From the NCBI GenBank assembly GCA_002633005.1, contig NMRA01000851.1:1-64000 (forward strand): a stretch of 64,000 nucleotides of DNA, in the 5' to 3' direction. The notes under the pieces are model-generated. The model was not told the origin of the DNA, searched no databases, and worked only from the letters and a program-made list of their open reading frames with translations. Positions 1-64,000 of this stretch are shown here, piece by piece; within the stretch, counting starts at the first letter, position 1, and each line of letters opens with the position of its first letter. This stretch comes from Phoronis australis (taxonomy: Eukaryota; Animalia; Phoronida). The position numbers and the translations under genes were made by a program.

Positions 1-1170
1 AATTAGGGCGAATAGCGGCAGAATTACATACAGCAGCGTAGTTTAATGCACACAAATTACACGTCGTGCAAACCAATCGGCCATCCCGTTTACCATCAAC
101 AATCCCAGTAGCCTTTGCGCACCCTAATTTCCGGACATGCGCAATCGTTAAATCGATTCGGTTGCAACTCCGCTATTATAGGTGAGCAGTTTATTGTTAG
201 AAACGTCAAGCGCTGAAAGACTGGTATCAAAACCAAGTACAAAATGGATACAGAGGTCGTTTCAGTGGTTAAAGTAAGTCGTGAGCATGAGATCGAAACA
301 ACAAAATTTACCCGAATTATAGAATTTGGGTGAGGATTTATCTCTTTTCACAACTTGCTGTGTTCGTAAACACTAAATCTCAGGGGCATAAGTCGACTTG
401 TACATGTGCATTCGTTCTTAACTGTCTGATGCATACACACAACTCTCAATGGATCAATGGTACGTTTTGTCTTCGTTTTCCTGGAAATCTTTCTACCATT
501 TTCACACGTCTTTGACGCAACGTTTTGGCACTTTGGTGAATGAAAGGACTCGGCGTACATGTAGAGTGTATCTACTTTTGTCTGGTCCACTCGTGGGTGT
601 GCATTTAAGTTACTTCATGAAATACGCTTTCCACAGATATCGACCTGCCAACGTATGATGGTAATGCTGGTGGTTCATCGTGCATGTTCCCGTTCATTTA
701 CAAAGGTCTGTCGTACAGTACGTGCATTGATGTGGATCACAATCAACCGTGGTGTGCGACCACCTCTAATTATGACATCGACCATAGATGGGGACATTGT
801 CCAGGTAAGGAAAGTTAAACAACAACTAGTTCCCCATTTTTTCGGCTGGGCGCGCAAATGGTTCAGCCATGCATGGCAAATCAAAAAAAAACCTAAGACG
901 GTAGACTAAAAGTCATTCTGTAGCAACAGAATACCAGAATACTATGTCTCATCAAGGTGTCGCTCCTTCGTCAGACGAAAACTTTCAGGAACTCATGATT
1001 GCTGTGTACATCGAAAGTGGCGTCCACATCACTTATTACTGCTCACATGGCGCTGAAAATGGCAGCGTCACTCCGATCAAATCACTAAACTTCGAAGGGA
1101 AATAGCTGTTCAACATCAAATTTCGACACTGGAATGGGGACAGCAGGAGTGATTGGCGCCCTCACTTTAA

Positions 1171-1691
1171 AGGTGAAGGCAACCTTTTTCCATGTCATTT
1201 TGAGCTAAAATAAGGTGGGTTGGTTATCCTAGACATATTTTCCACTTAATTACAGCTTTTCGTAATTTTATTAATTACTCGTCCGCTACTCCGGAAGTGA
1301 CGTTTTAGGAGACAAGCGTTTCCCGCCACTTGGTTTTGCGTTGACTTTACCGTGCGAATCTGTTCTATTATACTTTTGTTTTGTGCTGTTTCTCAGCAAT
1401 TGTCGCCACCACTTTCCATCGGCGAGTATTCTGCGGCAAGATTGGTTAGCAGAGAACTCAACTACGTTGGATTTAGGGATTGTTTAGTGTGTTGTAAGCT
1501 AAAAATGGCTGGAGTCGGTGACCCGTATCCCAGTGACATTAGTGTGAGTGACGGAGACCTTGTTCACAGCAGTGGTGACGAGGAATTTTTTCACGGACAT
1601 TCAGTGGGTGGGTACATGTTTGAGCCCGAGTATAACGAGGCAGAGTACGCACAGGCACAGGCAGCTGTTGAGAGAAACGAGGCGGCTACTG
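1171..1691. mobile_element. Kolobok DNA transposon, left end (about 160-bp TIR), cut by a scaffold N
   Basis: TTAA (1167-1170) precedes AGGTGAAGGCAACCTTTTTCCATGTC, the reverse complement of the end at 5997 and nearly identical to the TIR at 13172. TTAA TSD, RR..YY termini and THAP are Kolobok hallmarks. Confidence 0.85.
1505..1691 (+). CDS. 5' part of Kolobok accessory protein (KolX; P2X7 C-terminal/nanor-like)
   Basis: MAGVGDPYPSDISVSDGD...GGYMFEPEYNE: acidic N-terminus with a YMFEPE motif that I recognise from this family. Starts inside the left TIR arm, convergent with the THAP ORF. Truncated by N at 1692. Confidence 0.6.
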
Positions 1692-1969
1692 NATTTTACG
1701 TCATACATTTAGTCTGTGGCCACTGGTAATTCGAAATGTGCAAAAATCCATGGTGTGTACTGTTTAAAACAATCCTACAATGCATGATACATTCAACATT
1801 CATGTCACACTTCTCGTTTCTAATTGTTCAAAATATCGTGAAAGAAATCCGATACCAGACCAATCCAGTATTAACACTTTTCCTTCAACATGTTATCAAC
1901 TGTTTTCAAAATTACAGGGATAATTCAACTCCGGAATTTCATGGTTTCTTTAGATTTCTGGGGATTGAT

Positions 1970-2240
1970 CTAAAACCCATAGACACACACCCCCACAACT
2001 CGCTTGACCCACGACCCCCCCCCCCGACTCAGAAATTCCACGGCACGACACCAGCCACAACCCCAAAGGGAAAAGCCAGCCGAGCTCACGGCTCGACTCG
2101 TTGGTCCTGCAGGTCAGCGCTTGTTCTATATTCAGATAGAGTGGAGCTTGGGTAGATTGGGTGGAGCGGGTTGTGGGCGTGGCCAGGTCCAGCAGTTCGA
2201 AGGGTCGTGGTGTGTGAGGGTCGATGGAGTGTTTGAACAA
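1970..2240. repeat. Dispersed repeat with internal hairpin; inverted diverged copy at about 56,790-57,285
   Basis: GAAAAGCCAGCCGAGCTCACGGCTCGACTCGTTGGTCCTGCAGGTCAGCGC matches the reverse complement of 56,900-56,950. ORF-track translations share KPAELTxRLVxPAxQRxFYxQI. Confidence 0.65.
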
Positions 2241-2344
2241 TCTGATTTCTGGTGTTTCACAATGATGACCGCCAATGTTAATTGACATTTGACTTCAAAA
2301 TTGGTGAATTGTCAAAAATGAACACAAATAAGGGAGTTTTATAA

Positions 2345-2530
2345 TATACGGAATGTTAGACCTCGTTCGGCTGCCATTGCCTCCGGTCAGCCTAGGCGTG
2401 AGCGTAACAGGAGATTGACCGGAGAGCCAGATGTTAATCGACCATGGCAACTGGCGTGAGCCTATGCGTGACTTTACCCGGAATTTAGCGTGAGTTGGGT
2501 CTGAACGAAGCGCCCGGCGTGAGCTCCTCT
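2345..2530. mobile_element. Fragment related to the subterminal region of the 52,733-54,124 element
   Basis: Cluster of GCGTGA(G)/CCGGA motifs after TTAGAC, with the same layout as 52,752-52,920. Confidence 0.5.
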
Positions 2531-2964
2531 CACATAGCTACAGTCGAGACAATCTCAACTGCTATCCTCACTTGTTTAGCACGACTAGAACAAGGTACTG
2601 TCTCGTATCTCGAGTGAAATTTCCGTAAGCTATATAATGTTTTTACTATATTGCCCTTATTGTTTGGCATCAGTCTTGTTGCACTAGAGATGCATTGTAC
2701 ATTGTGAATTATTTCTCATTTATTTTTTACTGGTCGATCAAAGGAACTCTTCAACAGAGAGGCACTACTGCCGCTACCAAGTATTAATAGTGTAAGTTTC
2801 TGAGTGCACTTGAGAGCTCGCTTTACTCTCTGGTACATGCCATGACCATGTGTCTTAAAAAGAATTTCATCGATACATCTTAAGAGATTTAATAGCCTTT
2901 AGTATACCTGTTACCAAGAAACAAGCCAAAGTTAAAAACATTTTTTTTCTGCTCTTGGTGTTGT

Positions 2965-3722
2965 ACCTGATGGGTGGAAGACCGTCTCCGTCATCCAGTG
3001 CGATAGTGAGGAGAATATCCGTGAACAGCCGCCTTTTCAGTCATCTAAAGGTGCGTTTGTGGGGCTGCAGTAACAGCAACTTGACTGAGGACGTATCTGT
3101 GTTAAAAATTCTTAAAAACGTGAAAGTTGCACTTAAATGGCTTCGGTTTGGGCGCCTCACGAGAGTGCGGAGCATGCAATTCAGTCGTGAGCCAAACTTT
3201 GTTTGGCACATTTCAATGAATGATGCTCCGACAAAACACAGAAACAACTTTACGACGAACGACTCGCCACCTTCTAAGTGAATTTGCTAATTTTATAAAT
3301 GACGAACAAACTGATTCCATTCTAGGGTGAGTGATGCCAGGCTCCGATTCCGTTCAAGTGCTAGGAGACGTATGCAAATTTAGGCTTATGAATTGTGTTA
3401 GGGCCGTGGGCTCATTCCAACATGGCAATAGTGAATACTAGTGACCCAGATTTACTGTGGCCTTTGTCAGTGTCTATTTTGTGAAAATTGACCACCTATT
3501 GGTTTAGTTGGTGGTAGCTCACATGTGTCTGCAGTATTCCTCGTGCAACTGGGTCGTGTTCCTACTATATTAAAGCCGACGAAAGTGAGAAGTCCAATTC
3601 ATTGTCTGATTCTTTAAGTACTTGAGTGTGATGACCGTAACCTCTCTTTCTCTGTCTGCATAATAATTATCCAGATCTCGCTCATAATCATCCTCGTCCT
3701 CTGAACTGCTATGTTCCGCCAT
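2965..3722 (-). pseudogene. Decayed coding sequence of unknown family (diverged copy at about 58,080-58,750)
   Basis: Starts MAEHSSSEDEDDYE at 3722. Peptides shared with the 58-kb copy include PNKVWLxT, KPxPFxCNFHV, GHHTQVL and ESDNE. Multiple stops and frameshifts. Confidence 0.4.
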
Positions 3723-5438: not shown

Positions 5439-5997
5439 CGGGAATCAACACAGACGGAATGGCATCCTTCTTCGTTGTTTCGCAGGGACCTTCATCAGTT
5501 CAGCGTACAAATCCCTTTCGTAATCGGACGGCAGAATGTGCTTGCCACACACACGGTAATTCTCGACAGCTTTGTACATGTACGTTGCGTGGACGGGTAA
5601 CGCTGCGTTCTTCACACGAGCGAGCCAAGTACGGCGAAGTGTGCCATCCATCGGAAAGCGATGCAAAGGTACTCCCAAAGCGCGTGTGAGCCGATAATTA
5701 GTACATCCTGGTACGCAGCAACAGTGTGGCATGCTGACTAACTAGTAAATGAAAGCAAACGACGACGGAACTTAACACAACCGAGGTAGAACAATGACTG
5801 ACTCGGCAGCTCTCACAGTCAGAGTATATGAAAAGAAATTGGCGCGAAATGCTTGCCTCTTAAAACGTCACTTCCGGAGTAGCGGACGAGCAATTAATAA
5901 AATTACGAAAAGCTGTAATTAAGTGGAAAATATGTCTAGGATAACCAACCAACCTTATTTTAGCTCAAATTGACATGGAAAAAGGTTGTCTTCGCCT
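5439..5997. mobile_element. Kolobok right end with THAP transposase start
   Basis: Ends ...AAAGGTTGTCTTCGCCT followed by TTAA (5998-6001). TIR matches 1171 onward. Confidence 0.85.
5445..5732 (-). pseudogene. THAP zinc finger, N-terminus of Kolobok transposase (damaged)
   Basis: MPHCCCVPGCTN...LHRFP...W...RVCGKH = THAP C2CH. Frameshift before the xLKxDAIP box relative to the 14-kb copy. Confidence 0.8.
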
Positions 5998-17300: not shown

Positions 17301-17464
17301 ATGCCAACGCTTGGGGATGAATGTTTGGTGTGCAGTTTCAGTATTATGTGTGGAAAACGAAATACATGACTGAGTTTCAACCTGCTCGGTTACACTGCAG
17401 ATTCAGTGCTGGGTTATTGGCTACTATTTCCCAGAAAGTACCAAATCAGCAATTTTGCGAACAC

Positions 17465-20400: not shown

Positions 20401-20900
20401 GTGAATCCTCTCTTTGACGGAAAAAGTTCTCGAAAGGGACCACAGACATCAAACGTATTAATTATTCCCTTAAGAAATTTTGTAGCGTTTGGATTATTGC
20501 AAGATCTATAATTGCAAGTATCCAGTTCTTGACTGAGAAATAAATTAAAATCTCCACATACATGTAAAATAAACTTATCGGCATTCATTTCTTCAATTAT
20601 TGAAAATATATTACTATAAAAATTCGGATTATCAGTATTTGGACCGTACAAATTTACAAGGATGATCCTCTCTCCATCCATAATTAGTTCTATAATAACA
20701 TAATTTCCCGTAGGATCCTTTCTCACACTTTGAACAGTGAACTCAAAGTTATTATTAAATAGAATAGCTACTCCTCTTGAATTAGTCTTGTAAGAGCTGA
20801 AATGACAAGTATAACCCCACTGAGATTCAATGTACGGCTCCAAATCACAAGCAAAGTGAGTGTCTTGTAGACAATATATGCTAAATTTTGCGAACTCTTA
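17465..20900 (-). mobile_element. L1/Tx1-clade non-LTR retrotransposon ORF2, frameshifted; most of RT in gap 19,098-20,046
   Basis: APE motifs IYCLQDTH, SRGVAIL, NLYGPN, GDFN, FTW, ARLDFF, SDH and WKF. Post-RT FIW..K...EGG. C-terminal FKLLHRIL..N..L...CTFC...ETVDHIFFEC. AATAAA (17,486-17,491) and A-tail (17,465-17,472) on the minus strand. Confidence 0.9.
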
Positions 20901-34100: not shown

Positions 34101-37100
34101 GACACCCCATGAACCAGTAAGAATATCACCAAGCATTGCCCTGTTTTCGGTTAGAGATTTGTCAGATATCTGCAAAGAAAATGATCTTTTCATATTGACG
34201 CTCTCTACTGTAGTGACAGCACGAATTTCATATCGGATTGGTCTCGACTCAGATTTGGGGGACAGGAATTCAATTACTACTCAGTGGTCCATTAAACCAT
34301 TCACACCATGGTCATGCATGAGTGAATCCGTTTACCAAAAATGTTGGTATGATATTTTAATTATTCCTTCTTCAATCTGTGTATTTTTAATCAAGAAATA
34401 TATGCAAAATTCCAAAAAAAATCATTGTGACGTGATCAGTGAGCCTGGGACCTGCTTCAAGAAACTGACTTAATTTTGTTTTTGATTTCAGTTTAAGATT
34501 TTTCTTAACTTTCAAACACTGAAACGTCCACATTCGGTAAGAAAGTCAAAATTAAGACAAAACTTATGCCAAACACATGAGTAAAACTTATGATTTCTTT
34601 CTTGAATTGGCTTTGAGACAAATAAATCTTTTATTCCAAATTTTACACAATAATAAGAAATGTCTTAGCTACAGGTAAGTCTGTTTTGTCGGAACGGGCC
34701 TAAGGTCTCTATCATTGTGTAATTCTACACCAGTCGTAATGTTCTAAAAAACTGAGTCTTATGAAAGTTGTACATACATGTATGAGCAGATTATGCAGTA
34801 ATAGCAATCGAACAGACAATATTTCAATGTTTACATTTCATGAAGTCACAAGCACAGGTTCGTTCGTCAGACACGGATACATAGACGGCGTCACGGTGTA
34901 GCAAACGATCAGTTCAAGGGGTGCGCCGTGCCAGTCATCCCATTTTGAAGAATTTTCGTTCGATCCGTGGCAGAATCGGGAGATTTTGGGATTGTTTATC
35001 CAAAGATTACATGTAAATGCACTCGATGGGGAAAAACGATTGTGCTGTGCCATTGCTGGGGACGAGCATGAGCCTCAATATCGTATTGTGACTTAAATAA
35101 CGAACGTCAGTCTATTCTTATTCAAATGCGTGTTATACACAGATACGTCAAACTCCATTCGTAGAAAAGGTAATGTAGATGCCTCCCAAATAGTTTGAAA
35201 TCGCGACCGCAACCGACACAGAGGCTTGAGCTTGACACAGGAACGAAATAGTGAATCGATCGATCTCAACAGTACAAAACTTTCACAAAAACAATATTTT
35301 GGAACATAAAAGACAGAAATGAGTATCGTTATCCATTAAAATCCATTTAACATCATTATAATTAAATATGATTGTTCCTGACAATCCCACTCGAAATTCG
35401 AAGAAATAAAATCAGTGTCGGCTATTCGCGACTGGGCTTTGACAGGCTAAAAACTTCGGTTAGATCTACATTCGAAGACACCCATTATCCAACACTTAAG
35501 TGGTTAGAAAATTAAATATTGATTCAATAAATATGCTTTAATCTCTACTCTGAAATCAGAACTGTCTGCAGACAGAGTAGGCTCCAACTAGGTGTCACTC
35601 GCAGAAGATGCTGCTGCGGGAGTGTCGAGTTCGTACGGCATCAAACACGCAGTCTGCCAATAATGCGAGATCTAACTTCGTACTGCCTGCTTTTTCTTTG
35701 ACCTCAGTGACCCATTTAACCCCATCTCCACACTGACCTACAAAATCACCTCTATCCACCGCTGTATATACTGTATACGTGTTCAACGTCTTTCACGTGG
35801 GGGAAACCAAAAATCTCAAATTTTTCTTTAAAATTCAAAATTCCTTAACTATTTCCCAAAATAAGTGCTTGCTTAGTTAGACTTTGGGTTATAAATTTAC
35901 TATAAGCTGTGCAAATCTACTAAAAGTGGACAGGTCCTTTGTGGGAACGCTTTAACATGAAAGCAGAGGATTAAATGGCACTTGTCAGTCGCTCCCCAGA
36001 TTAGTACATGTATAAGTTCACAGTGGGAAATGTATGAAGCATGACGTCCTTGTTCATCCATCGATAGTTCAAAAGGTTTGTGTTTGCTGGAAGTCTTTGG
36101 TACATCCCACCGCGAAAGAGTTAACATTTCCTGTATGATAACAGCAAAAAGTCTAAAACGCCGTTTATACCACTACGCTGGACCGCCCGCATTGCACGGG
36201 ATCTCTAGGCAGCTCTGAACGCCTGTCCAACATAAACCCGATTGCCGTCTGGCGGAGTCACGAATTTCAGTATGGCACGTCTATTTCGAGTCAGCTATTA
36301 TATGATATCCCTATTCCAAACAGAATGAAACCAACCAATGAACCGCACACCTATATTTGCATCCATTACATGGTGAAGAAGAGGAATATCCCTTCATTTC
36401 TATCCGTAAATTCAATTTCATTGTTAAAAGCAAACCAATGACAATATTTTTTTCATTCCAATGTCTTATAGAAACGATGCCCACATGGACGCATTAGAAT
36501 AAAATATCAAATAGCTAATATGAAAGTGTATTTAATTGTCTTGTCTTTCCCAAAGTTACATGTACAGCTGAACCGCATTCAGAATTATCAAGGCGATCCG
36601 GGTCAAACTGCGTCCACACAACAAGATAACCCAAAAACGAACACGGCTGAAATGAAAATCGATGGATAGTGCCCTCTGCAGAGGTCGGCCCACAAAGTTT
36701 ATTTATACAATAACATGTGACCAATGGCTGGCTTCATAAGATTCTGACGTCATTAGGTTGACTGAAATCGGGTCATTTTAAACTAATCTACCACCGTTCG
36801 GTGAAATGCCTCAAGATCGAGACTGCTTTGGCCAATACCGGAAGTTCGCCCGATATGGAGTAGAATAGGCTTAATGTGGAGCTGTTGAATTTCCATTAGA
36901 AAATGACTGTCATCACTGTAAACTGTCCGAGCACACATTCCACTGATATTTGTATTTAAGTAACTTATTAAATGTAGGAGTCCCATGCCAAGTCAAATTC
37001 TACAAGGAATACTTTTGAGCATGTTCGTACTTTGATTATTACGCTTTATCTGCCAACAGTTCTGACTGTTAAGTCGACACGATTAGTCAGAAGTTTAACC

Positions 37101-40100
37101 AGGGTTAACAGATAATGAATTTAGCTTCGCTCAGTCGAAGAAACTCCACGTTACGGTAAAAGCCTGAAGCAGTTGAATTTTAAAAATCAAAATACAGAGC
37201 AAGCTTTACCGCTATCAAAATCGTTTAGTAAAATTGGAGAAACTGTAATGAAGCCAATGAAAGATCATTTTACTACCATTATAACATGCAAGAAAAATAA
37301 CGTTGTTTTGGATGTTTTTGTGTATATGTTCAATGTTTTGGAAAATTCACTCACTTGGCCACACTTCGACTTCACACAACGTCAAATTTGCGTTCCGCGG
37401 ATTCTGGGATTCGATTCGCACAGTTTTGCCAGTCAAAACGTTTGTGCAGGGGGTTTCTACAACACGTCCCTTTGGCACGCCAAGGCTGCTAAAGCAGAGA
37501 TTTTTTGTACCATCATCCCGTAACACGTATGCATTAATGGGAGGCACCGCTACATCTTAAAGTAAAATATAACATACATGTATAACACCGTTAGCGATGC
37601 ATCGTATTCTGGCTATTGCAAACAACAGTGAACTGTTGAGATCACGTCAGTGGCACGGGATTTGCAATCACACACATTTTGGTAAAGGCGACGAAAATGG
37701 TTGACACTGGTCTGCTAGGGTGCGGTCGGCAGAAGTATGGGGGGAGGCGGTCGGCAGAAGTATGGGGGGAGGCGGTCGGCAGAAGTATGGGGGGAGGCCA
37801 TATCAAAAAACACCTGTGAGCTTCCACTACACCTTAATTGTCAAGACAATTGCATTGCAAGCGAAGTTTAAAAAGCTTTCTTGTAATCAGCGGTGTTCCA
37901 TTGCGTGGTGGGTAATTACTAGGAAAACCTGATAAGAAAAATACAAAGACATATTGTGGCTTTAAAAGCCCGAATAGTCCTTTTGCGAATTTCTAACAAT
38001 AACGTAAAATTCTGTAAGACTAAGGTGTGTCGCTTCTGAAAACAAATCAGTTGTCCTTGCCAGTTGACCCGGCGGAACAGGTGAATATACCCACTGGCAA
38101 ACACGAAAAAACATGTGCGCTCTCTATTTCACCAAACCAAGCCATACCTCGACCGGGGAAGATACCCATTACAATATATTAAACAAACAAGTGCTCTCTA
38201 TTTCACGAAATCTAAACCATACCTCGACTGGACGAGATAGTTAGACTAGCTATTTTATATTCGCCCTCCAAATCCACTTCCCACCAAGTCTCGTTTATGC
38301 TCATTGCGTGCGCGCAAGAAAGGAACATCTCAACATGGTCTCGGCTGCCGTCTACGGCCAGTTTGGATTCTGGTGAAGTGTCGCCTGAAGACTGTCTTGT
38401 CGGTTTCCCTTGTGATATAGGTTTCGCTGCAAAAAACACAAGATCAAAATCATTAGTTTAAGCTCAGGAGTAGAAATTGGCGGGCAGTTCACAATTCCCA
38501 ACTGGGTTTTATGATGCACTGATTCAACTACATGTAATATTTAGCAAAAACTCGTCTAAACGATACTGCCATCAGTAATGCAGCAACACGAAACTACTCT
38601 TTTTCACCCGATTATGTATTCTTCGTGAATTCGTACCACTGAGGATTTCTCCTCAGTTGCTACCCTCGAAATTCTTGTTTCATTTTGGCACCACCATAAC
38701 CAAACTATTGAGAATGTCCCGTTTTCTATTTTTCCGCTGCTTCAGTTATCATTCTATTCCAACATGTTTGCATCCAGCTTCATGAAACAGTTCTAGTATA
38801 GAGAATGAACCTGTACTATGCAACTTGAATACACATGTAACTGCTAAAGCATGAAAACCTCACAACTCAACATATTCTCGCCAGCCTTCATGTACTTACG
38901 TGTACATCGAGGAATGTTGCAATAGTCCCAACGCCTCTGGCCGGATTCAGGCCCATAGAGGTAGCACCAGGGGCCACCAATGCTGCGATCGGCATTCCGG
39001 CAAAAATTGTAGTCTAGTTCTCTTAAATATACGTCTCTGGTGAAAGAACCTAACCCCGATAGTTTGTTCGGTGCCCAGTGCCACGGCTGACACAAGTGAT
39101 CGTTTTTAGATACGGATACTTTTCCTCTGAAGGCAGTTCCAAGGTCATCCTCTTTGCATGACTTGTTGGGAGATAAATCTACCGAGGCAGGCGCATTATA
39201 ATGCTGAGTGAACTACACTTAATAGAGTCATCATGCTGTAGCTCTGACAAGAGGAAGTCGGTAGATAAGATAATCCATTTCCTGCACTCCCTGTTGCCAA
39301 TGTGCACCAATTCGTGTGGAAATACCTACGTCGTTTATGCAGTTGAAATACTGCATTTTCAGTTGGTTATCAAATCAAACGTATGGAGAATTGCGAATTA
39401 ATTTAATTCTTTCTAATGATAATCATTAGTTTCCTCTCAGTTAAACAATATACATGTGTGTATGCAATTTTACTCTAATCACAGCAACACCAACGGCGTC
39501 GTTCATTTAACACCGGTTGGGTATTTCTTCCAGGTTGTGAGGTAGTTAAGTTTCTATCAGAAAAGAAATGCGACATGTAACGTGACAAAGAAATATATCA
39601 CGATATCATCATGCAGGCTACTCCAAAATACCCACGTGTTTGACAGTAGTCTGGAAATCGGTCGGTACCACTCACCTTGGCAGATCTTAGATGCCTGCTT
39701 CTTCCACGGGTGACAACTTTGACCTTTCAGACTGCCCTCTTTGCAATCCCGAGTTCTTGAACGGGTATGGGTCTCCTTGTCACACGGGCCCCAGGGCGTC
39801 CATTGCCCAAACTGTACTTCATATGTGTCTGAAATCATGAAAACGTGGACCCAGAAACTGCGCTAACACACACACTGAGTCCGCTAAACTTCCCATGGTT
39901 CTCACAGGTTATCGACTGCAAGTACCATCTCCGCCTTTTGGAAGTTGAAAATCGCGCGAAAATTCACGTTATCTTTCCTCTCAAATAAGTGGCAAAGGTA
40001 TTGTTTTTTATTAGTGAAGCTGAATCTTATGAATATTTGGGTTTATATGGGTTCACAAACTGTACATGTATGTACATGTATGTGTGACCACGTTTATTTA

Positions 40101-41848
40101 TTGCGTTGATTAAAATGAAGGGGGACACTTAAATGTTTGCACAGATTTCCAAAAGGGCTCTCAACAACATATAATTATAAGTAAAATATAATATAGTCAG
40201 GTAGTCAGGGAAAAATGAATACGGATAGCAAAGCAACAATTAAAAGAGGTTGAGAATGTAGAGAATAAATAACTGACGAGGGGTTGAAGAAATTACTTAA
40301 GAGACATGAAATTCAACAAAGATGTGACGCTAAATATTGAGCGTATTAACACCTGAAAGGCCCCATGTTGTGATATTGCAAAACCACTTTTGGATACACC
40401 TTTCAAGAATTTTGGAAATTGCAGGGAAGTCCGATATTGCTTTACAATTCTCGAAGTGTCTTGAAAACACGAATAACGAACGCATTTTCTATCCCACGGG
40501 AAACTATGTCGCAATCTCATCGCAGTGATGTCGGTATATAGGCGTAAACATTGTTCACTTCTTTTTCTCCCTTATAATAAAGATCTTGGTAAGCATTTAT
40601 CGGTAACGGGCTGATTATTGACTAAGTAACGATATTCGTGCAGTCTGTATTGTTATATATAACAAAGACGCTCGTGGCATACATGTAGATCTCATAAGTT
40701 AAACACGATTATATAACCACAAGCTACTTTTTGGCTTCGACATTTAGTCTACTGTCAAGTAGGCAACAGTATTCATGGTTATGGTTTCGGGTTGTAGACA
40801 GATTCCGGACTTTTAGCCTTTGCATGATTTCATGAAACAGATTTAGTTGTACTAGAATGACATTTAGCTAAAAGAAAAATGCTGCAGCCTCTTCGAGAAA
40901 CAAATCCCCGGACCCTATGTTCGGGTTGCTTCACGTATTGACTCACCGTCTGTACACTCGGGTGGGTCACAAAATTCGTAAGTGCTGGAAGTAGGGTTAG
41001 GGTCCACATAGCACCACAGCCGGTTTTGTGTATCGGGAGAATTATGGCAGTCACTGTTGTCGCGGCATTTCTTACCCGTCCGTGTTACTTTAAGTTTCTC
41101 CGAGTGTGCGTAGTTATTACTCCGATCGTAGCAGCCTTACAAGAATTATACGTTATAGGTGGCATGCGTATAATTGACTAAAGTTTCAATTAGCAGTTGT
41201 GAACTTGGGTATTTCACATTATTGAGATCTCAAAATCAATATACTCACCCCCCGTGAAAATCAAACTTCGTTTACCATTTATCGTATGCACAGATATCAA
41301 ATGCCGATAAAACCACTTTGCTGTAGTGAAGCAATTACATATTATGGAACATGTCATCTTGTAAAATGTTGGAACTAAATGTACGACGATTTGAAGTATG
41401 GTATTCGCAAGCCAAAAGAAAGATGATTAAACTACAGGTGCTTGAATTTGTAACAACCCTGAACCCTAAAGCTCTCTTTTCAAGAGACTGGAGGAGATAC
41501 GGGAACGCATCAAAATGAAATACGAGTTTAAGTAACGATTTAAATCATTACTGGAGGATTCACTTTGTCTTTTTAAACACAATACTCACCGATAGGCTCG
41601 AAATAAACAGCTACCTCACAAAGCGATAAGTTGTCTTCCGTCGTCGAGACCTTCAATGTGTTGCCATACGTATCTTTTTTACACTTAATTACCGTGCCTT
41701 TGTTTACTGGAAGTTCGCCTTCCCAATGGAAACATTCCGTTTGTATATCGTCTTCTGTGTACACTAACAGCTTGATGTTGCTCAGTGGTCTCCGGACTAC
41801 AAGGTGAAGATAAATATGAAATACACAAACGCAGAGGGAGAGAGAACA

Positions 41849-41887
<39 letters not shown>

Positions 41888-44800
41888 AGGGAGGGAGGGT
41901 GAGGAAGGGTGGAGTTATACATGGAATATTATAAAGATGGGGCAAGGGCTAGAGAGACAAATTTCATCGAACAGAGTTCATTGATCATCCGTGTGACATT
42001 TTTGGGCTTGCACAAAGGTCAGCGATGAATCGGCCAGGAGAGTTAAACTTCGAACTGAGTGTCGACTGCAAAGCATCAATTCAAATGGGGCTATTCGGAA
42101 AATCTGCAATAACTAGAGGGCATGCTTGTACTAGTGGTGATAGATTAACAGCCTCGACTTCGCGAGCCCTTTAAATACATGGTGAAATGGCTTGCAGCCG
42201 TGCAACTGAATCTGAGATTGCGTAAAAAGGGTGCTTCTAAGAGAGGAAGTAAGCACGACCTCATACAAAGGTAAGGTTTGTGATTATTTTAACAATTATT
42301 CCATGATTATTCTACCGATGCCTGTTAACTGAGGCACTCGCCGATGTCGACTTCGCGGCAGTCAGTCGCCAGCCATTGTCTGGTTAATCTTTGTATGTTG
42401 TGACATGTGATACGATACTTGATGTAGCAATCGGGATCTTTTCGTAGATCAAAGCATTATTATTGTTTGTAATGATTTCTTAAAGTTTATCAGTGACAGT
42501 TACACATCAATCAATGCTGAATGTTTATGCTGTCAACTCGATACAGGCTAATGAGTTAAGATTACAATCCAATCCCAATGGCAAAGGGTACGTGAGTGAT
42601 AAATATCCATTGCATTAGACTATTTGTTTACTCCCTATCATCTTCTTCTGGAAATCTATTACACGTTGAAATGGAAATCTATCACGTCAGTTTTCACGTA
42701 ACCTTTGGTTTTTAGGTTTGAAGGCTTCTACCGTGCAGAGGAGATATGCATCGCTTCTGCGCCGTCCCTGAATGGACAAAAATTGTTTTTTAGCATTTGA
42801 CTGCAGCTAACCAACAAGATCTTCCCATCCAGTGCAGATCTGTTGTCAAAGCCTACATGTACTTTCAATATTGGAGACAACGAACAAAGCCTTTGAAAAA
42901 GAACAGCTATTTTTAAAGTCATTTTGTTAAATTACTTATTCAGGCCCCAAGGGGGGATTGGCATAGGGGGTTGTAATATTTGGTACAACGTGTGGAAATA
43001 ACAGGTAATACATGTTCGGGAAAAGAGCATGGTGTGGTAATTCTTAACCTTCATGAAGTCCCTTCAAGTTGATTTCATGAAACTCTTTTGCTACTTGTAT
43101 CAATTGTAAAACCACGGAAATATATTACATTTTCTGAATTCACAGTGACTGAATAGTCTTAACTCATGCCTTGAAAGTCGTTATGAATTCAAAGGACTGC
43201 CATTTTTGTGAAATATCATTTTTGATGGTGCCTTAAGATTTGTAATTACTCTTAAACAACAGAAAGATTATCCATGACCCAAGTCTTTATATCGTCTATT
43301 AAGAGAAAAACGATTCCCTCAACCTTAGGCTAGAAGTATGCTTGACAGACCCATGAACCTGTAATCTGAGTTTAAAATTGCTGAAAGTATCAAAATTAAA
43401 AAGGCTTGAAAATGGGTAACAAAGGTTTGAAGTTGTCTCAAAAACTTGTATATTTTACAGACAAGTGATGCGTTTAAAGAATTGTTATGGCTAGGGATAA
43501 AAAATAAAGACACAGTTTTATGCAATACTCATTATATACACCCTTGGTTTCTGAAAATAGCAATTATTTACTTTTATGTAAAACTGTAGACCAATCACCA
43601 TATATTTTTGAAAAACAGGGATAACATTTTGATCCAATCTGGAGTACTTAATTATTCATATTTCAATATTTGTTCCAGGATCAGTGACATTTTAAGGCCA
43701 CTTCAAACTGTATCATAGACAAGCTTTGTTACTCCGTTCTCTTCCCACAGCACTTCCACAAACCAGCAGTGCTGCATGGCACAATATGCTAGTCAGTGGC
43801 CCTGGAGAAATGTGAATCGCAGTACTAAGTTACCATAAGACAATGTTCCAGTGGAGTGTCTGTGTATCCAGACGAACTATATCTGACTGCTACACAAATA
43901 AGCCTTGTTGGTGAGGATGCCCTTTCATAGACAATGAGTCATGTGTGGAAAATAGCTTATTTCCTTTCCTTGAAGAAACATGAGAGACTGAAGCTAAAGA
44001 AGACCTAGTCACACTCTGGTCTAGTTCAGAGTCTGATTTTGGGCTCAAAACGATTCAACTGATATGCTGCTGTGTTTACCTTCAATGGTCTAATTGTGGA
44101 TGTTATTGAGGCTTAATGAGGTTATATGAAAGAAAGCCACGTGTTGAAACTGGATCTTTTTTACAAGCACTTCTATAGGCCATTTAAACTAGAACCCAGT
44201 CAAATGAAAGCCAAAAGCTGAGTGACATTAAATTTTCCTTTCAGAAGAAAGGCTTTATACTATCGGTAAAAACTTTTCAATTTGGTACAGATTATGGGGA
44301 AATGACATTCAGTGACTGCATCAATTGTCTTATTGTATGTTTTCATTTGTAGCTAGAGTAGCTGGATAAGAATTTGCTATGCACAAAATTCGAGAATAAA
44401 CAATTATCAGTATATTTAAGAACGAATGGCAAACTGAAAAAGCACAGAAAGAAACAACATTGCGAGGGAGTCCATAATCAGGCATATCAGGTACTGAATT
44501 TCTGAAATACGCTCAATTTTCTCAGGTTATTGCTGAAGGATTGCTTTTCACTTTCTCCAACGGTGAAATAGATGGTCAGGCGGTTGGTTTCAGTTGTTTT
44601 TTCTTGCCTGTAACAGAATAGAAATATAAGCAAATTGTAAAAGAAAAGACAAGACAAAACTACTTTTGTAAGGCAGAACATACTTGACCTTTCATCTTCA
44701 TGCTTATGTGTAGAAACTAATAACCTTTGTACCCAAGTCTTATTTAATATCTGAATTAAAATAAGTGAAACAGGCTAAAAGTGATTTAACATTGTGTATT

Positions 44801-47800
44801 TTTCATGACACTTAAAATGTGCTTCTGATCTCAACAAGTAAAATTCATTCTAGGTGTCAATTTTTTTCCAATGCAATGTTACGACAGTTACTGAATTAAG
44901 GCTTATTCATGTTAATTCGATAACTGAGCTGGTGGTCCTGGGGGTGGGGTCCACGATAAAATAAGGAAACTCACTCATCTAGAGAATTTTATTGGAAACA
45001 GCATAGTTTTGAAGAGAAACTGCTGTGAAAAAGTCACTCTTGACTTCTGTGCATCACGTACTATACACCTCTTATCTTGGGAGCACTCCCACCCAGGACA
45101 ATATGAATATGTGCTGCTAGCCTATCCGGAATCAGGTGAGTTTCCAAAAAGAAACACTTAGTTCGACTCTATAAACCTGTTATTCAGTGGAGTAACTGGT
45201 GGGGATAACATCACCGAACGATGTTGATAGAAACTGATTGCTAAAAACTTACCAAGTAATGTTGTGTAGTCTCCGAATGGAAAAATTCCATCATTTACCA
45301 GTTGTTTACATGCAGACAGCCACGCATGCGCAATTCAATCACCACTAGTACAGCAGCGACACCGCGAGCAGAATTCTCCGAATAGCCCCATTGGCATTGC
45401 GTTTGGCTGCGTTGATTAAGGTGTTTCAAGGTTCTGGTTTAAAATCTCACGTTATCTCGAGGGGTTTGTGGACAAGTCTATGACTTCACTCAATTATCTA
45501 GAAGTGCACTGTACATAGTGCAAGGCTTATCCCTTGGAAAGGGACAGAGGACTCCACTTCCCCCCGTATAATCCAGCATTCTTAACGAGCGAAAGGTAGA
45601 AATGTCCGCCAACAACCAACCACGTCTCTAAGTAAGTGATCATTTTATATACTACTATGAAACGGACCTTGGATTCACAGGTATTCCTTCAGGTTAACGG
45701 GTCTCAGAAGTCGAAGAGCAGAGCGTCATTTTCATCCTTTAATTTGCAGCCTAATAAACTATAAACTCATGTTTAAGATAATGTACACACAGTACGCTTG
45801 TACATCCAAGATCAACACTTTGGTCAACTTCGCAATATCACATCGCATAAGTAATATATGATCCATGAGAATCTTTCAGATACCCTACCTTATAAATTGT
45901 TCTCTAGAACGCTGTTTTAAAAGATTGCACTTTTCAATAAAGACCTACTGTATCTGTACACAGGACTGGCATGATTTGTCTAAGCAGGTTGAAATTAGTC
46001 AAAATCACGACAATATTTTAAAAATTGCAATAGCGTTTCTGAAACAGTACGTTGATTAGTCTTGGGTCAGGAAGTTAGTTATGTACTTGACCGTGTTAGT
46101 TTGCTAGGAATGTAACGTTCGATCTGTTTGTATTTTAAGTATCGTTACGTGAGCATCTTATTGTTATACTGGTTTACTGAAAACACTGACATTTTACCCA
46201 AAATCTGCTGGCAAAAAATCGTGCTTTTGCTATAGTTTGTACAAACTTTTCGATATACTGTAATCCTGCATAACATTGATCTCGCTGGCACATGAATATC
46301 CCAATTAATCTTTACATAATCATCCATTTTTGAAGTTGCATGACTTTCCTTTGGGAAGGGGCCGTTTATCAAGACCAACGCAAATTAAATTTTTAGTCTT
46401 TTTGTAATATCTAAAACGAACCAATTTAAAACTGCTCTCCACATCGCAGGTTATAACTATGTGCAAATAACAGAGAAAAAAAATTTGGGTGTAATAACAG
46501 CCACCATTGTTTAAGAAACTAATGCTAACTATTACTTTTCCACTTCATTAGCTAAGGGACCCGTTCCAACAAAACTGACTTAGCTAAGACAAATCTTAAA
46601 TTTTAGTAAATTTTAAAATAAAAGTTAAGTTCATTTCAAAACCAATTCAAGAAAGAGATCTTAAGTTGACTTAAGTGTTTAACAGAAGTTTTGTCTTAAT
46701 TTTGTCAAACTTACCGAATGTGGAAGTTTCAAAGTTTAGAAGTTAAGACAATTCTTAAACTTAAGTCAAAAATGAACTTAAGTCAGTTTCTTGGAACAGG
46801 CCCCAGATCTACATCAATACAAAGGGCGTGCTGAATAGGCCAACGGAATCAGAGCGGTGACCATTGTAAGCTAGAAATTTTCAACATGAAAAAACATACG
46901 ACCTCCAGGAGCCTTCCGACAACTACAGGGATAGAATTGGGAATTTCTCATCTTGTTATCATAATCAACCTCAGTGGTGTGATTTAAAGTTGTAGGATCA
47001 GGAAAATGCTTATCCAATATGACTCTGGGGAATTCACTAGATGAAGTAGTGCATGTCCATCAACGCGTAGGATTGTCTCCAAATGAACAGTCTGATCTTC
47101 CCTCAGGACCTGAACAAGATAGACTTGACCATTCCTGCCACGAGCTCCGATTTGTGACACAGACTGTCAATTCATTTCACTATCTGCACGTAAGGCAATC
47201 CTATGAGATTTCCTTGTAATCCGGAAGAGAAGTGAGCTCTTTGGTCCATGAAATCTGGCGATTAGTTTTTCTCCTGAGACTTATTACTCTTGTATTGTGA
47301 GCAACATTACGGACTCTAGTCAACGAATCTGGGACAGTATCACATAGCTTGTGAACTGATTTCAGCACGTGTGCGGAAATCCTGTCAATCATTTTTAATG
47401 ATTTTGCTATACACAGTGTATAGGGTACGGCGAACATGTAAATTAACACCTTGAATCCAATATACCCGTAACATAAAAAGATACATGTAGGACTGTGAAT
47501 CTACTATCCAACACCTAACCGCATCAACTGCAAGTATATTCACTAAATTCAGGTTAAAGATCTCGTGGCGATTCATAAAAACAAAAGCACTTTCATTTTG
47601 TCTGTTGCAAATGGTCAGTTTATTAGCGACATTTATTTTTTACACGGATACATCTCTACAATTGGAAACAGAACTATTGATCACCTCATGGAGAACAATG
47701 GCATCACACCTTATCATTAAAGGACTCTGACATTTACTGCATAGTTGTGGAACACTGTATCAATTGGAGGTTCTTCAACTGGTTCCTTGTCATATCTGCT

Positions 47801-50800: not shown

Positions 50801-53800
50801 AGTCCGTTTAAGCGCGTGCTTATTCAGTGTTTGCTAACAGAAAGCTGTTTTGGAACAATTACTCGATTTTGTATGCTATGGTCACATGTTAGGGGAATTT
50901 TTATTTAGAAATACAAATACAGTATTCAACTCATTGTTTCTGCACAACCTTTGCTCTGACGGTCTGTGGAAGGGGAAACCGTTTTCGCCGCCCCCGAAAA
51001 GTAAGTAGATTTTCAGTTTCGTGGCTAATTCACATAAATAATTACGTGCAAATTATTTCTTTGGATCATTTCAAATGAGAATATGTTTATACATGTAGTC
51101 TTTTCGTGACTGCAGGTTTTGTTTCCAACTCAAGGTGGTTTATGTTCGTGCCAGTCTCGGCGTTCGCGACGGGCCTGATCGAGTTCCGAGCCATCGGTCA
51201 GGATAACAAGCGATTTGCGTGTTCAGAACTCAAAAAATCGCAACTCTAAACAACACAGATCTAGGTTCTCCTATCTGTATTTCACGGAAAAATACTTTGA
51301 ATTTATCTCCGAACATACCTCAAACTTCTGCTACGGACCTTGGTAAAATGGCATGCAGATCTTTGTAGGCTACGGTGTGTCCAAAGACCAATAAATCCGT
51401 AACAGCGAAATAAAACAACACGTTTGTATAAGAACTCGGTGTACTTTTAAGGGATTTACATCGAAATTTGATGCTTTATTGGTGATAAACGATGATTTCA
51501 AGCGGTAAGCTGACACCAATAACCAGTGTTGTGAACTCCTGAACAGACTGCGTGTGAAACCAATTGGAAAATTTCAACACCTCGTCTGCCGTCAGGTGTC
51601 AGGTGACGCAACCGAACGTGCCGTTGTCGAGTAGAACTACTCGATCTAAATTGATACAAAATAGGTTGTTTTTTGGTGGCATTCTCCTTTAAGTGACGGG
51701 CGGTGGGCTGCAGACTGGGTATGTAGGTAGTTCGTGCTCTCATCATGTAGCATCCTTATGATATCGGAAAAAAGAGTTCAGGTGCCTGTACTGTACACAA
51801 TGCAGATCGCTGGTTCGTGTCTTTGCGAGTCGGTCTACATTTTCGTTGCTGTTAATACCTACATGGACCCTCACCCAGTGTTCATTGACGTTTGTTACAA
51901 CTGCAAGTTTGTTAATCTCATTAGCGCAAGCATTAGACAAGACACTTGGTTTCTGCAGGGGTTTTACTGCAACTTTGGTAATTGAAAACATGGTAATGGA
52001 CCGGTTGACCACCTTTTCATTGTACTCGCGTGACATAAACAATGATACTTCCAAGCAGCTCAAAACAAGCAATCGCATCTATTTATATGTTACAAAGCAT
52101 AATTAATACATGACTGCATAATGGGGCTCTTCGGAAAATCTACAATAACTATAGGGTGCGCGTGTACTAGTGGTGATAGATTAATAGCCTCGATTTCGCG
52201 AGCCCTTTAAATACATGGTGAAATGGCTTACAGCCGTTCCAACTGAATCTGAGATTGCGTAAAAAAGGGGCTTCTACATGTATGAGAGGAAGTAAGCACG
52301 ACCTTATACAAAGGTAAGGTTTGTGATTATTTTANAAATGCTTACAGCCGGACAAAATGTTGTGATATCCTAGATCCGCCACTGCAATCAATGCTGATTG
52401 TTTATGCTGTCAGCTCGATACAGGTTAATGAGTTAAGATTACAATCCAAGCCCAATGATAAAGCGCGGTACATGACAAATATCCATTGCGTTAGACTATT
52501 TGTTTACTCACTATCATATGTCTTCTGGAAATCTATTACACGATGAAATGGAAATCTATCACGTCTGTTTTCACGTAACCTTTGGTTTTTAGGTTTGCGG
52601 GCTTGTACCGTGCAGAGGAGACATACATCGCTTCTGTACCATCCCTGAATGGACAAAAATTGGTTTTTAGCATTTGACTGCAGCTAACCAGCAAGATCTT
52701 CCCATCCAGTGCAGATATTTTGTCAAAGCCTACAGTACAGCCAGTGAATTATTAGACTCTCTCCGGTGTCTCTCCGGTCTAGCCACCCGTGACCGTAACC
52801 GGAGACAGACCGGAGAGTGAGACGTGAATCAACCGTGACAGCTGGAATGAGCCTAACCCGGATTTTACCGTGAGTTAGGCGTGAACAAAGCGCGAGCCAG
52901 CCGTGAGCCAGGCGTGAGTTTACCTACATCGCAGATGAAAAAGTAATTTATCAAAATTATATCAGAAACTAGCAGTTATGTGTGTGTTCTCATACACTTT
53001 TGCTCATGTGAGGTTTATTTTTTTGAAATCGTCACGTTCAGCAAAAGACCAAAATTTTCTTCTCAAATCTTAAGTCACTTCAGGAAACAGACCTGTGGAC
53101 TATACTTTTCACTTATATATAATTATTTGTTTTTATATAAACTAATAAAGAATCTTAACACGCGTGTACATGGCGAACTTATTCAATTGCCTCCACGATA
53201 TAAAGGAGCATAGCATGTCAATTCTCAGCACATTGATACCAAGTTCCGGCTTCAAGCGGAGAAAACTGATCGTGCCCATGCATTTGACCAGTCAAACAGA
53301 TCACTGCTATTATTATTTTAGTGAAGAAGTACCCCGGAGATACTGTGAACTCAGTCGAAACGCATGTACTACGTGGATGGGGTTACAAATACACTGTAAT
53401 TTAACTGCACTACGGATTGAGGACTTTTTAGTCAAAACATTTGCTTGCAGGAAGGGATGGGTATGTCAGAGTGGCGGCCTATTGAATTTTTGTGTACCCC
53501 AGTGCGGTGAAAAAATTTACGAAGTGACACAATACTTCAAAAGATGCATAGGCTATTTTTAGGGCAAATTAACTATACCAACACGTGACAAGTTTATAGG
53601 AGTCCACAGCCATGTAAAGACGACTCTGGACACAGGGTTGCGTATATTCGTATTTACTAATCGTGGTTATTGTACATGTATGTCGTTGATGGGACTGGCT
53701 CTTAAGTCGTAAATAGAAAATGTACATGTAACCGTAACACAAGATGAGCTGCAGGAAGACGTTTGTATGAACAACACGTGGAATTACAAAGTGTAACCCA

Positions 53801-56800
53801 AGTGTAATAGGTGAATGCTTGCAAAGATACTATATAATATACTATAATGTCTTTGCAACTTGTCCGAAACGACAGGCAATCAAGACGTTACAGGTATTTT
53901 TATTGATTAGACCGGTGCCCTACCATGGTTACCACAGGTACCGAAGGCGTGAAGAAAGCCTGAGGAAAGCGTGAACTAAACCAGAGGCAAGCGTGAGGAC
54001 TACCCGGAGATTGGGCGTGAGGTGACCGTGACTGATTTCTGTCACGCCTGCGTTCCGGCTCGGCTCCGCTCTGGCCAGGCGTGAGGTAGTCCGGACGAAG
54101 TCTAAAAATTCAGTGGCTGTACTGTACTTTCAATATTGGAGGCAACGAACAATACCTTTGAAAAGGAACAGCTATTTTTAAAGAAAGGTATGTAAGTCAT
54201 TTTGTTAATTTACTTATTCAGGTCCTTAGCGGGGGATTGGCATGTGGGGTTGAGGTTGTAATATTTGGTACAACTGCATGTGTGGAAATAACAGGTAATA
54301 CATGTTTGGGGCAAAGAGCATGGTGAGGCAATTCTTAACCTTCATGAAGTCCCTTCAAGTTGATATCTTGAAACTGTTTTGCTACTTGTATCAGTTGTAA
54401 ACCAATGAAAATATATTTACATTTTCTGAATTCACAGTGATTGAATAGTCTTAACTCATGCTTTGAAATGTTGCAAGTCGTTATACATTCAAATGTCTGA
54501 AATTTTTATGAAAATTGCATTTTTGATGATGCTTTACGATTTGTAATTACTCTTAAACAACAAAAAGATTAGTCATTTTTAAATTACCCAAGTCTTCATA
54601 TCTTCTATTAGGAGAAAAATTAAAAGTCTGAGAAACGGTCCCCTCAACCTTAGACTAGAAGTATTCTTGACAGACCCATGAACCTGTAATCGGAGTTTGA
54701 AATTGCTGAAAGTATCAAATTTAAAAAGGCTTCAAGTGATATGCTGCTGTGTTTACCTCCAAGTGTCTAATTGTGGATGTTATTGAGGCTGAATGAGGTT
54801 ACATCAAAAAAGACACATATCGAAATTGGAACTTCTTTACAAGCGCTTCTATAGGCCATTGAAACTAGATCCCAGTGAAATGAAAGCCAAAAACTGAGTG
54901 ACATTAAATTTTCCTTTCAGAGGAAAGGCTTTATACTATTGGTAAAAAATTTCAATTTGGTACACATTGTGGGGAAATGACATTCAGTGACTTCATCGAT
55001 TGTCTTATTGTATGTTTTCAGTTGTAGCTAGCTGGCTAAGAATCTGCTATGCACAAGATTCGAGAATAAAGAATAATCAGTGTACTTAAAAACAAATGGC
55101 AAACTGAAACAGCACAGAAAGAAACAACATTGCAACGGAGTCTATAATCAGGCATATCAAGTGCTAATTTCTGAATTACGTTCAATTCTCTCAGGTTATT
55201 GCTGAAGGATTGCTTTTCACTTTTTCCAAAGGTAAAATAGGTGGCCGGGCGGTTGGTTTCAGTTGTTTTCTCTCACCTGTAACAGAATAGTCGGAGAAAT
55301 ATTAGCATATTGTAAAGGAAAAGACAAGACAAAACTACTTTTGTAAGGCAGAACATACTGGACGTTTCATCTTCATGTTTATGTGTAGAAACTAATAACC
55401 TTTTTACCCAAGTCTCATTTAACATCTGGATTAAAATATGTGAAATAGACTAAAAGTGATTTAACAATGTGTATTTTTCATGACACTTAAAATGTGCTTC
55501 TGCTCTCAACAAGTAAAATTCATTCTAGGTGTCATTTTTTCCAACGCAATGTTACGACATTTACTGAATTAAGGCTTATTCATGTTAATTCGATAACTGA
55601 GCTGGTGGTCCTGGGGGTGGGGTCCGCGATAAAATAAGGAAACTCACTCATCTAGAGAATTTTAATGGAAACAGCATAGTTCTGAAGAGAAACTGCTGTG
55701 AAAAAGTCACTCTTGACTCCTGTGCATCACGTACCATACACCTCCTATTTTGGGAACACTCCCACCCAGGACAATATGAATATGTGCTGCTAGACTACCC
55801 GGCATCGGGTGAGTTCCCTAATAGAAACACTTAGTTGCACTCAATAAATATGTTATTCAGTGGAGTAACTGGTGGGGATAACATCACCGAACGATGTTGA
55901 TAGAAACTTGATTGCTAAAAACTTACCAAGTAAAGTTGTGTACATGTAGTCTCCGAATGGAACTGCATACAGTAGTCATAGAGCAAACACGGGGCTTCAG
56001 CATCCACACACTTTTTGTCAGTTACTTGACTCTTTTGACCGCAATTGTCCACGGATATAGTAACTTTAGGTCTTTTGGGAATTTTGGTCACCTGTCGAAG
56101 ACTTGCACCAAAGAAAATAGAAGTAATAAGGCTAAGGGCGACGACGTATTTTGATAAGAATTCATCTTTTATCAGTTGTTTACATGCAGACAGCCATGCA
56201 TGCGCAATTTAATCACAACTAGTACAGCAGCGACACCGCGAGGAGAATTCTCCAAATAGCCCCATTTAGCAAAATGATTCTTGCAAATCTACAGCAAAAC
56301 ACTCACTTGGGTGGTCAGCCGCAAACGCTACTTCATAATGTTCGTCCCTGCAGTTACGCTGTCGTTTGAACTTCACCCTGTCCCTGTACAATTTATGGAC
56401 ACAATAGCATGTTTTGTCTCCTCTGTGGAAAACAGCGTACAGCCGTTTATAACCTGCTCCAACTTTGCATTCCAGGGCGCATTCGGCGAGTGTCGATGTT
56501 CCAGGTCGCTTTTTCCATCTCTGGCCAGGTAACGTTAACGTGTAACAACCTAAAGCTGCCAATTTATTACTCGATATAGAGTGAAACTCACTGTCAGTAA
56601 CGGACCTGCACACAGCAGAGGGTCATGTTTCATAGACTATACTTTCTATGGACTATAGACAAACTAACTCGCTGAAAACAAACAAACTCGCAGTCGTTTT
56701 CAAGATCTGAAAACAAACCATTTACCTTGTTTACGAATCGCTTCTAAGGCCAGTTCCAAATAATTTATCAAAGAAGTTGTGCATGTAGGGATTGTTATAA

Positions 56801-63498: not shown

Positions 63499-63737
63499 CT
63501 GAGCAAAACAGGTTACATTTCAATAGCTTTCGTAGGGAATAACGTTTGGTTGAGATGGATTAACGTAAATAAAGTGTCTCAGTCTACCTGCTCCTTGACA
63601 AGACGAGCTGTGATATTTGCCCATAGAAAAGAATGACTGTTCTGATCAACATTTGACAGCATGCTATGTCTGTGACGCAATTTCTTCCATTTCTGGGATA
63701 ATTGCTGATATCAGGACGAATTCTTAATCACCAGGTA

Positions 63738-63783
63738 GTGTGTGTGTATGTGTGTGTGTGTCTGTGTGTGTGTGTGTCTGTGT
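63738..63783. repeat. (GT)n-rich microsatellite
   Basis: Direct read. Confidence 0.9.
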
Positions 63784-64000
63784 TGGTGTGGACTTAATAC
63801 ATGTAGGTAAGCGTAGCATACCATGTAGGGGTAGCATTTCTACAGAGTGACCTGCCACCGCACATGCATTTACGAAGACAGTACGTCACCTTTATAATAT
63901 TTAGCAAGCATGACGTACGAAAAGCCAAGACCTCCACAATTTTCCTCCCAGTTCCCACTACATTTGCTTATACAAGGACCGTCGTCGTTTAGCTTGTTCG

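Follow-up and report, generated by a model that had tools for sequence, protein, structure and literature searches.

The excision mechanism of Tc1/mariner cut-and-paste transposons has long been known. Enzymes of this superfamily cleave the non-transferred strand at a point a few bases within the element, and end-joining converts the resulting 3' overhangs into footprints (excerpt of PMC8151067). What is left behind varies among the described systems, as far as the excerpted accounts go. In Caenorhabditis elegans, taCATGta is given as a rare Tc1 footprint (PMC3520976), TATGTA and TACATA together make up 78% of Tc1 footprints in the soma (PMC12632400), and the germline repairs by homologous recombination that restores the element, end-joining scars being mainly somatic (PMC13148408). 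Sleeping Beauty leaves cag or ctg between two TAs (PMC8151067, PMC5224488, in excerpt), and the excision sites of Stowaway-type Mariner elements in rice are heterogeneous: in the part of PMC4423477 cited here, 8 of 94 were 'perfect' and most carried deletions or filler. Here we describe one window, the 64,000 nucleotides at positions 1 to 64,000 of contig NMRA01000851.1 (62,403 non-N bases) from the phoronid Phoronis australis, in which a single octamer, TACATGTA, is repeated far beyond expectation. Wherever a copy could be checked, six bases have been inserted at a TA. The likely source is excision of Tc1/mariner-superfamily elements, whose footprints were then inherited, a reading to which we give a probability of about 0.87.

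The octamer occurs 64 times, first at 556 and last at 63,798, and forms a field without strand (556..63805) of 58 loci once six overlapping doublets (TACATGTACATGTA) are merged, or 55 once three loci in near-identical local duplicates are also removed; we take these loci as likely 6-bp footprints of the form TA-CA-TG-TA. Markov models of order 0-2 predict 1.5-1.8 copies, and models of order 2, 3 and 4 with the motif collapsed to TA in the background predict 1.4, 1.8 and 2.4 (Poisson p ~1e-73), a 35-fold excess. A first-pass annotation made from the letters alone had claimed roughly 50 copies, beginning at 557, against an expectation of order 2: the enrichment stands and the expectation agrees with the 1.4-2.4 computed across Markov orders, but the copies number 64 and the first lies at 556. 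Among the 256 perfect 8-bp palindromes TACATGTA ranks first, and the second, ATGTACAT (15 copies), overlaps it. The runner-up among words of the form TA-NNNN-TA is TAAGCCTA/TAGGCTTA (8 versus 1.2 expected), and none comes near TACATGTA. A perfect scar thus occupies about 1.3% of the window's 4,305 TAs. The loci are evenly spread (16 bins, chi-square p=0.70), show no link with low CpG (Spearman +0.43, p=0.096, 16 bins), and a search of Rfam returned 0 matches. The interval 31,210-51,200 contains 21 copies, and gap-free contigs of sequencing runs X1 and X2, which may come from the same sample as the window's assembly, cover 17 of them, so these copies are not assembly errors. As an aside, the first copy, at 556, falls in frame within a weak match to the BEN domain (351-614, minus, E=0.002).

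How these words arise can be seen where repeats allow a comparison. We reduced every locus to TA and looked for matches to it elsewhere in the window. A paralog covering the site was found for 16 of the 58, and for six of them this paralog is a clean short form reading TA. Five had already been named in the first-pass annotation, and each is indeed an exact TA/TACATGTA indel: 32,033/32,888; 32,108/32,957; 33,184/32,352; 55,941/45,267; and 52,275/42,238. The sixth is the doublet at 32,217, missing from the paralog at ~33,059. The paired repeat 31,988-32,447 versus 32,843-33,291 (73% identity) holds four of these six, with scars 32,033, 32,108 and the doublet 32,217/32,223 in one copy and 33,184 in the other; across this interval (32033..33191) each scar is missing from the partner copy. 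A variant, TACAGGTA (34670..34677), is also a 6-bp insertion at TA, relative to a paralog near 46,582. Three further loci are less clear: 11,246 leans to plain TA in its paralog (75% identity), at 58,611 the paralog is too diverged for a clean call, and at 58,456, a seventeenth locus with coordinates picked by hand, divergence leaves the alignment ambiguous. A seeming frame-breaking insertion in a THAP open reading frame (ORF) at 5,575 was dropped, the frame being open throughout and the partner lacking 16 bases across the site.

Seven loci in recent duplicates (at least 95% identical) share the motif, namely three pairs with both copies intact plus 9,563, whose partner at 10,490 reads TACAAGTA; among paralogs of 64-92% identity there is no motif that both carry intact. 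The window also holds near-identical tandem duplicates (96-99%) adjoining N positions (3,612-5,437/5,996-7,797; 9,374-10,303/10,305-11,224; 26,041-26,710/27,058-27,727), which could reflect either recent duplication or an assembly that placed both haplotypes next to each other.

Paired copies cannot distinguish an insertion at TA from a deletion between two TAs, and we therefore sought outgroups. Two sites could be polarised. At 42,854, in a copy of a high-copy host repeat, the six bases are skipped in 104 of 157 (run X5) and 128 of 190 (run X6) RNA reads of the repeat family, counting only reads that omit those six bases. At 20559..20566 a scar lies in frame in the endonuclease ORF of a long interspersed nuclear element (LINE; 20,340-20,897, minus) and adds two residues just before the motif GDFN. 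All 120 homologs listed, of 263 found, have a gap at these residues, and the spacing of the endonuclease motifs is 25 in 87 of the 120 and 27 in the window. The long form is thus derived at both sites, judging from the family's read majority in one case and from a protein outgroup in the other, and the possibility raised in the first-pass annotation that the long form is ancestral found support at neither. The LINE remnant itself extends over 17,915-20,897 (minus), with endonuclease (PF03372) and zf-RVT matches, and is broken by an assembly gap.

This polarity bears directly on an account without any transposon, in which the long form came first or was produced by slippage, the short paralogs being the products of deletion between TA microhomologies. 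Such a deletion, from TA-CATG-TA to TA, is plausible in itself, six-base tandem duplications do exist in the window (9,801; 54,253), and three single scars have an adjoining CATG, besides the six doublet loci. The short form is nevertheless the ancestral one at 2 of 2 polarised sites. In the five pairs named above the non-palindromic parts never copy neighbouring sequence and the short paralogs have no adjacent CATG that could have been copied; a 35-fold excess of one single word, together with the filled site described next, would be left unexplained. We consider this account very improbable.

One TA in the window is found in all three states that excision predicts: empty, filled and scarred, a result that is new in this analysis. 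The site lies in two plus-strand copies of the host repeat mentioned above, copy A (42084..45392) and copy B (52120..56266, scarred also at 52,275, at 55,941 and, with a scar of the 5-bp type, at 55,968). The two are 92% identical over 2,429 aligned bases, and the summed contig depth of their family exceeds 1,000 times that of single-copy sequence (a ratio of depths, not a copy number). In copy A the site is a footprint (42854..42861) and reads GCC-TACATGTA-CTTTC. In copy B it is filled (52731..54126): TA, a 1,392-bp non-autonomous element (52,733-54,124) and TA, in the position that corresponds to the TA of 42,854, with GCC-TA before the element and TA-CTTTC after it. The empty state comes from reads of the family that join 52,730 to 54,125 and so skip 1,394 bases, the element and one TA (77 X5 reads with 57 different starts, and 32 X7 reads). 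The termini of the element are inverted, starting CAGTACAGCC and ending GGCTGTACTG, with CAG...CTG outermost and 24 of the first 26 bases matching. The bases added in copy A are the first two and the last two of this element, CA and TG. The first-pass annotation had pointed to Tc1-type elements with CA...TG ends that duplicate TA, and an element with such ends between duplicated TAs lies at the very TA of the scar, in the sister copy.

The element is likely a non-autonomous member of the Tc1/mariner superfamily, as its duplicated TA, its CA(G) terminal inverted repeats (TIRs) and its dispersed copies suggest. Behind 54,126, unrelated flanks (agreement 0.4) appear in 22 X1 contigs, 15 X3 contigs and 43 X5 reads; it therefore belongs to a dispersed family ending in CTG-TA. 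Its left end was not among the loose ends listed. Depth in its interior is 1,800-6,200, against ~40 for single-copy sequence. A scan of the window yielded 9 candidate pairs, and among these only 52,733-54,124 is convincing as an inverted-repeat element that has CA...TG ends and is flanked by TA. Two copies of TACATGTA lie inside it (53,673 and 53,723; 53673..53730), and neither was among the 12 of 80 indels listed. Fragments akin to it (72-74% identity) are found at 2,381-2,513 and 12,131-12,321, degenerate and without recognisable terminal repeats. A second candidate pair of TA-flanked inverted repeats, at 29,496-30,231 (736 bp), ends in AGGACTGTTGCAT/GGGACTGTTGCAT, without CA...TG. We also tried the TIR pattern on metagenome contigs; the two matches (L001, L002) have no partner TIR, L002 lies inside a bacterial gene, and we took both as chance.

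How far does this site tie scar to element? Copy A has one motif and shares 153 TAs with copy B, which puts the chance of the scar falling on the filled TA at about 1/150; this figure assumes equal TAs, was computed post hoc, and is raised by any hot spot. Both copies read TTTCAATATTGG next to the site where the family's loose-end consensus reads TTTCTATATCGG, a difference of two letters, one of them at a CpG, and this weakly suggests shared descent of A and B. No footprint-type joint was among the 15 of 38 joints listed for the filled site. Another copy of the family elsewhere in the genome has TACATGTA at a neighbouring TA, the sole evidence from beyond the window. In the reads, the six-base insertion at 42,238 and 45,267 was not among the 12 of 145 indels listed, despite high read depth, and heterozygous alleles (scar/empty or scar/filled) were likewise absent from the 12 of 145 and 12 of 80 indels listed.

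A transposase could in principle add six bases without completed insertion and excision, through abortive integration or through templated repair of a cleaved target, the element at 52,731 having then arrived independently at a favoured TA. There are 58 scars for 1 intact TA-flanked element with CA...TG ends, and few derived letters are common to A and B (1 of 10), both of which this route would accommodate, and the target preference described below is compatible with either route. It does not predict that the inserted bases are exactly the terminal two at each end of the element found at the same TA, and in the absence of a hot spot it needs the coincidence of about 1/150. A second filled copy of the site did not turn up in the reads, among which no search was aimed at one. 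We regard this route as improbable, though less so than the other alternatives weighed here, and it may yet apply to some of the 57 loci to which no element is tied.

The sequence of events under excision by a Tc1/mariner transposase can be outlined as follows. A transposase encoded elsewhere would insert elements at TA and duplicate the TA. On excision, a cut two bases inside each 5' end would leave one flank with TA-CA and the opposite flank with TG-TA. The two CA overhangs, which are not complementary, would then be filled in and ligated untrimmed by germline end-joining, giving TA-CA-TG-TA, and a three-base cut would give the class TACAGTA/TACTGTA. As no transposase was found in the window, the two-base cut is hypothetical for the element's own family. 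Scars would accumulate while intact elements stay rare (1 against 58 scars) because each excision moves the element yet leaves a scar.

The flanks of the scars carry a Tc1-like palindromic target preference. For this analysis scars were collapsed to TA and both flanks folded (n=110). T occupies position +3 in 51 of 110 cases, against 34.9 expected, position +2 favours purines, and A is depleted at position +1 (18 versus 36.1 expected). The target motifs of Tc1 and Sleeping Beauty are given in the excerpt of PMC2577343 as CAYATATRTG and RCAYATATRTGY. The half-site score of these motifs (+2 to +4) at 55 loci exceeds background, with 0 of 100,000 resamplings reaching it (p<1e-5), and it is still raised at the 52 loci without adjacent CATG (p=0.0002) and at the 42 without CATG-like flanks (p=0.002). 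Each scar itself puts CATG beside its TAs, which fits the preferred half-site, and re-insertion at such a TA may stack scars into doublets: five independent doublets are found, against 0.7-1.5 expected (p=0.001-0.018).

TACATGTA is not the only word in excess. TACAGTA and TACTGTA together occur 29 times against 11.9 expected (p=2e-5), two of the 29 being the element's own ends. At the 5-bp-type scar 55,968 the family's loose-end consensus has plain TA, and so has the paralog (~33,362) of a TACAGTA scar at 32712..32718. Further TA-bounded words in excess are TAATTA (58 versus 33.6) and TAGCTA (19 versus 10.8), and the runner-up TAGGCTTA/TAAGCCTA is seen as a 6-bp indel at 9,933 relative to 11,425; such words may have been left as scars by elements of other families.

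Words one mismatch away from TACATGTA are also in excess (60 versus 39 expected), and the excess of exact copies over that of one-mismatch neighbours is about 3:1 (62 versus 21). This suggests a mean scar divergence of ~4%, or a steady gain over ~10% of divergence (a rough figure, range 6-14%). Decay of this kind speaks to programmed somatic removal of TA-bounded elements, in which germline DNA would retain the elements. Internal eliminated sequences of ciliates offer a parallel, and dense scars with few intact elements are what such removal would produce in somatic DNA. The scars have, however, been copied in local duplications and then mutated, as at 9,563 and its partner TACAAGTA at 10,490, and mutated neighbours are in excess across the window; copied and decayed scars both point to long inheritance, and programmed removal is most unlikely.

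The same palindrome has been read elsewhere as a regulatory site, and a fourth alternative is that TACATGTA is a transcription-factor site (for an Irx-type homeodomain or a Myb protein) whose copies selection has retained or multiplied, the proposal made for motif-1 of Phytophthora. There the word is abundant upstream of genes and an origin as footprint is rejected in the excerpt of PMC3520976, and PsMyb37 is described as binding it in that of PMC11134190. Selection could also yield the 3:1 ratio of exact to one-mismatch excess (62 versus 21). In the window, however, copies arise as TA indels within repeats and within the LINE ORF, they are uniformly spread (p=0.70) with no clustering, paralogs of 64-92% identity share none intact, and selection does not account for the matching ends of the element. 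We judge such selection very unlikely as the source of the words, and scars may later have been used as binding sites. Conversely, the Phytophthora promoter motif could be a scar of this type that was later reused.

Excision footprints remain the best explanation of the field, and several observations count against it. Outgroup polarity is available for only 2 of the 58 loci, and only 1 of 58 is tied to an element. Among 300 of the 305 window ORFs of at least 55 aa compared with Pfam there is no transposase of a DDE family, and the element's longest ORF (53,149-53,559) has no homolog among longer proteins. The size of the scar also departs from C. elegans Tc1: the +6 form is dominant here (64 versus 1.8), and the +4 forms TACATA/TATGTA are not enriched, standing at background (38 versus 41.6 expected). 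C is the favoured letter at position +1 (36 versus 24 expected), the T of the Tc1 motif being at background, and slippage could have made both the doublets and the three CATG-adjacent singles. Common ancestry of A and B is weakened by 10 other A-specific positions, at which B agrees with A once, with the majority 8 times and with neither once (4 further positions are unaligned), and by outer boundaries that differ between the two copies. Lastly, the spliced kringle gene described below has 0 copies of TACATGTA in ~1,074 coding bases, where a hand estimate expects ~1, a test without power. The Tc1-type origin put forward in the first-pass annotation is supported by polarity, matching element ends and target flanks. 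It is qualified by the missing transposase and by the description of TACATGTA as a rare Tc1 footprint in C. elegans (excerpt of PMC3520976), and the evidence for a genome saturated with scars comes from this single window.

A broader and more tentative proposal, to which we give somewhat less than even odds, is that untrimmed end-joining in the germline closes Tc1/mariner breaks with such regularity that a single word fills more than 1% of TAs. With a scar that resembles the target, the process would feed itself. It would act as a pervasive, sequence-specific source of mutation, recording lost transposition ~50-fold better than the elements that survive, adding residue pairs in frame and seeding a known transcription-factor palindrome genome-wide.

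The window also holds genes and other repeats. A spliced, expressed host gene with kringle and F5/8-like domains (Pfam) lies at 37355..41830 on the minus strand, its RNA joints being of the CT..AC type; it has one TACATGTA (37,575), in the last exon and past the stop. The joint 33,164->37,355 (107 and 66 reads) has only 36 letters on one side, which leaves the last exon of this gene uncertain. A search with a kringle exon gave no match at 1e-10, and the clusters retrieved were generic kringle ones; the gene and repeat content would suit an invertebrate animal. A fibronectin type II exon is found at 621-815 (plus, E=1.5e-18), and an RNase H fragment at 51,746-52,078. A family of elements of the form TTAA-AGG...CCT-TTAA, with inverted repeats of ~150-170 bp and a decayed THAP domain (PF05485), is represented at 1,163-1,337, 5,439-6,003, 13,166-14,366 and 61,036-61,835; its members resemble Kolobok-type non-autonomous elements. 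A high-copy element of ~250 bp with GGG...CCC-like inverted ends is present at ~46,554-46,806 and 34,445-34,700, is skipped by many reads (joint 46,553->46,804), and we take it as possibly a PIF/Harbinger-type miniature inverted-repeat transposable element.

The age of cut-and-paste transposition is usually read from the copies that survive, and departed elements are overlooked. An inherited scar of uniform spelling, present at ~1 per kb, allows past excisions to be counted and, through its decay, dated. A site in three states names one responsible element family and gives a handle for finding its transposase. Motif-finding in genomes of this kind could, on the other hand, take scars for regulatory sites. 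Among the papers listed by our literature search (40 of 425 for the bare word), with subscription papers outside its scope, there was no account of genome-scale TACATGTA footprints at such density in an animal.

The described systems each share part of this pattern, insofar as their excerpts describe them. Like Tc1 of C. elegans, the presumed elements of the window use a TA target, have CA...TG ends, leave a scar from two terminal bases per end and have flanks like CAYATATRTG (PMC2577343). Unlike it, the window has inherited scars at ~1 per kb, and no Tc1 transposase was found within it; since the C. elegans germline restores the element and scars there are mainly somatic, dense heritable +6 scars imply another regime of germline repair. 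The Phytophthora motif-1/PsMyb37 site is an identical and abundant palindrome (PMC3520976, PMC11134190), read there as a promoter element, whereas in the window it arises as a TA insertion inside repeats. With the Stowaway-type elements of rice the window shares non-coding TIR elements moved in trans and excisions recognised from filled, empty and scarred sites, and differs in that a single stereotyped word dominates. With Sleeping Beauty it shares a scar of non-homologous end joining from 3' overhangs, and the TACAGTA/TACTGTA class is enriched (29 versus 11.9) with two paired examples; the main scar of the window, however, has 4 bases between the TAs, not 3, and the excerpted papers on Sleeping Beauty describe footprints from experimental mobilisation, and not as a standing genomic feature.

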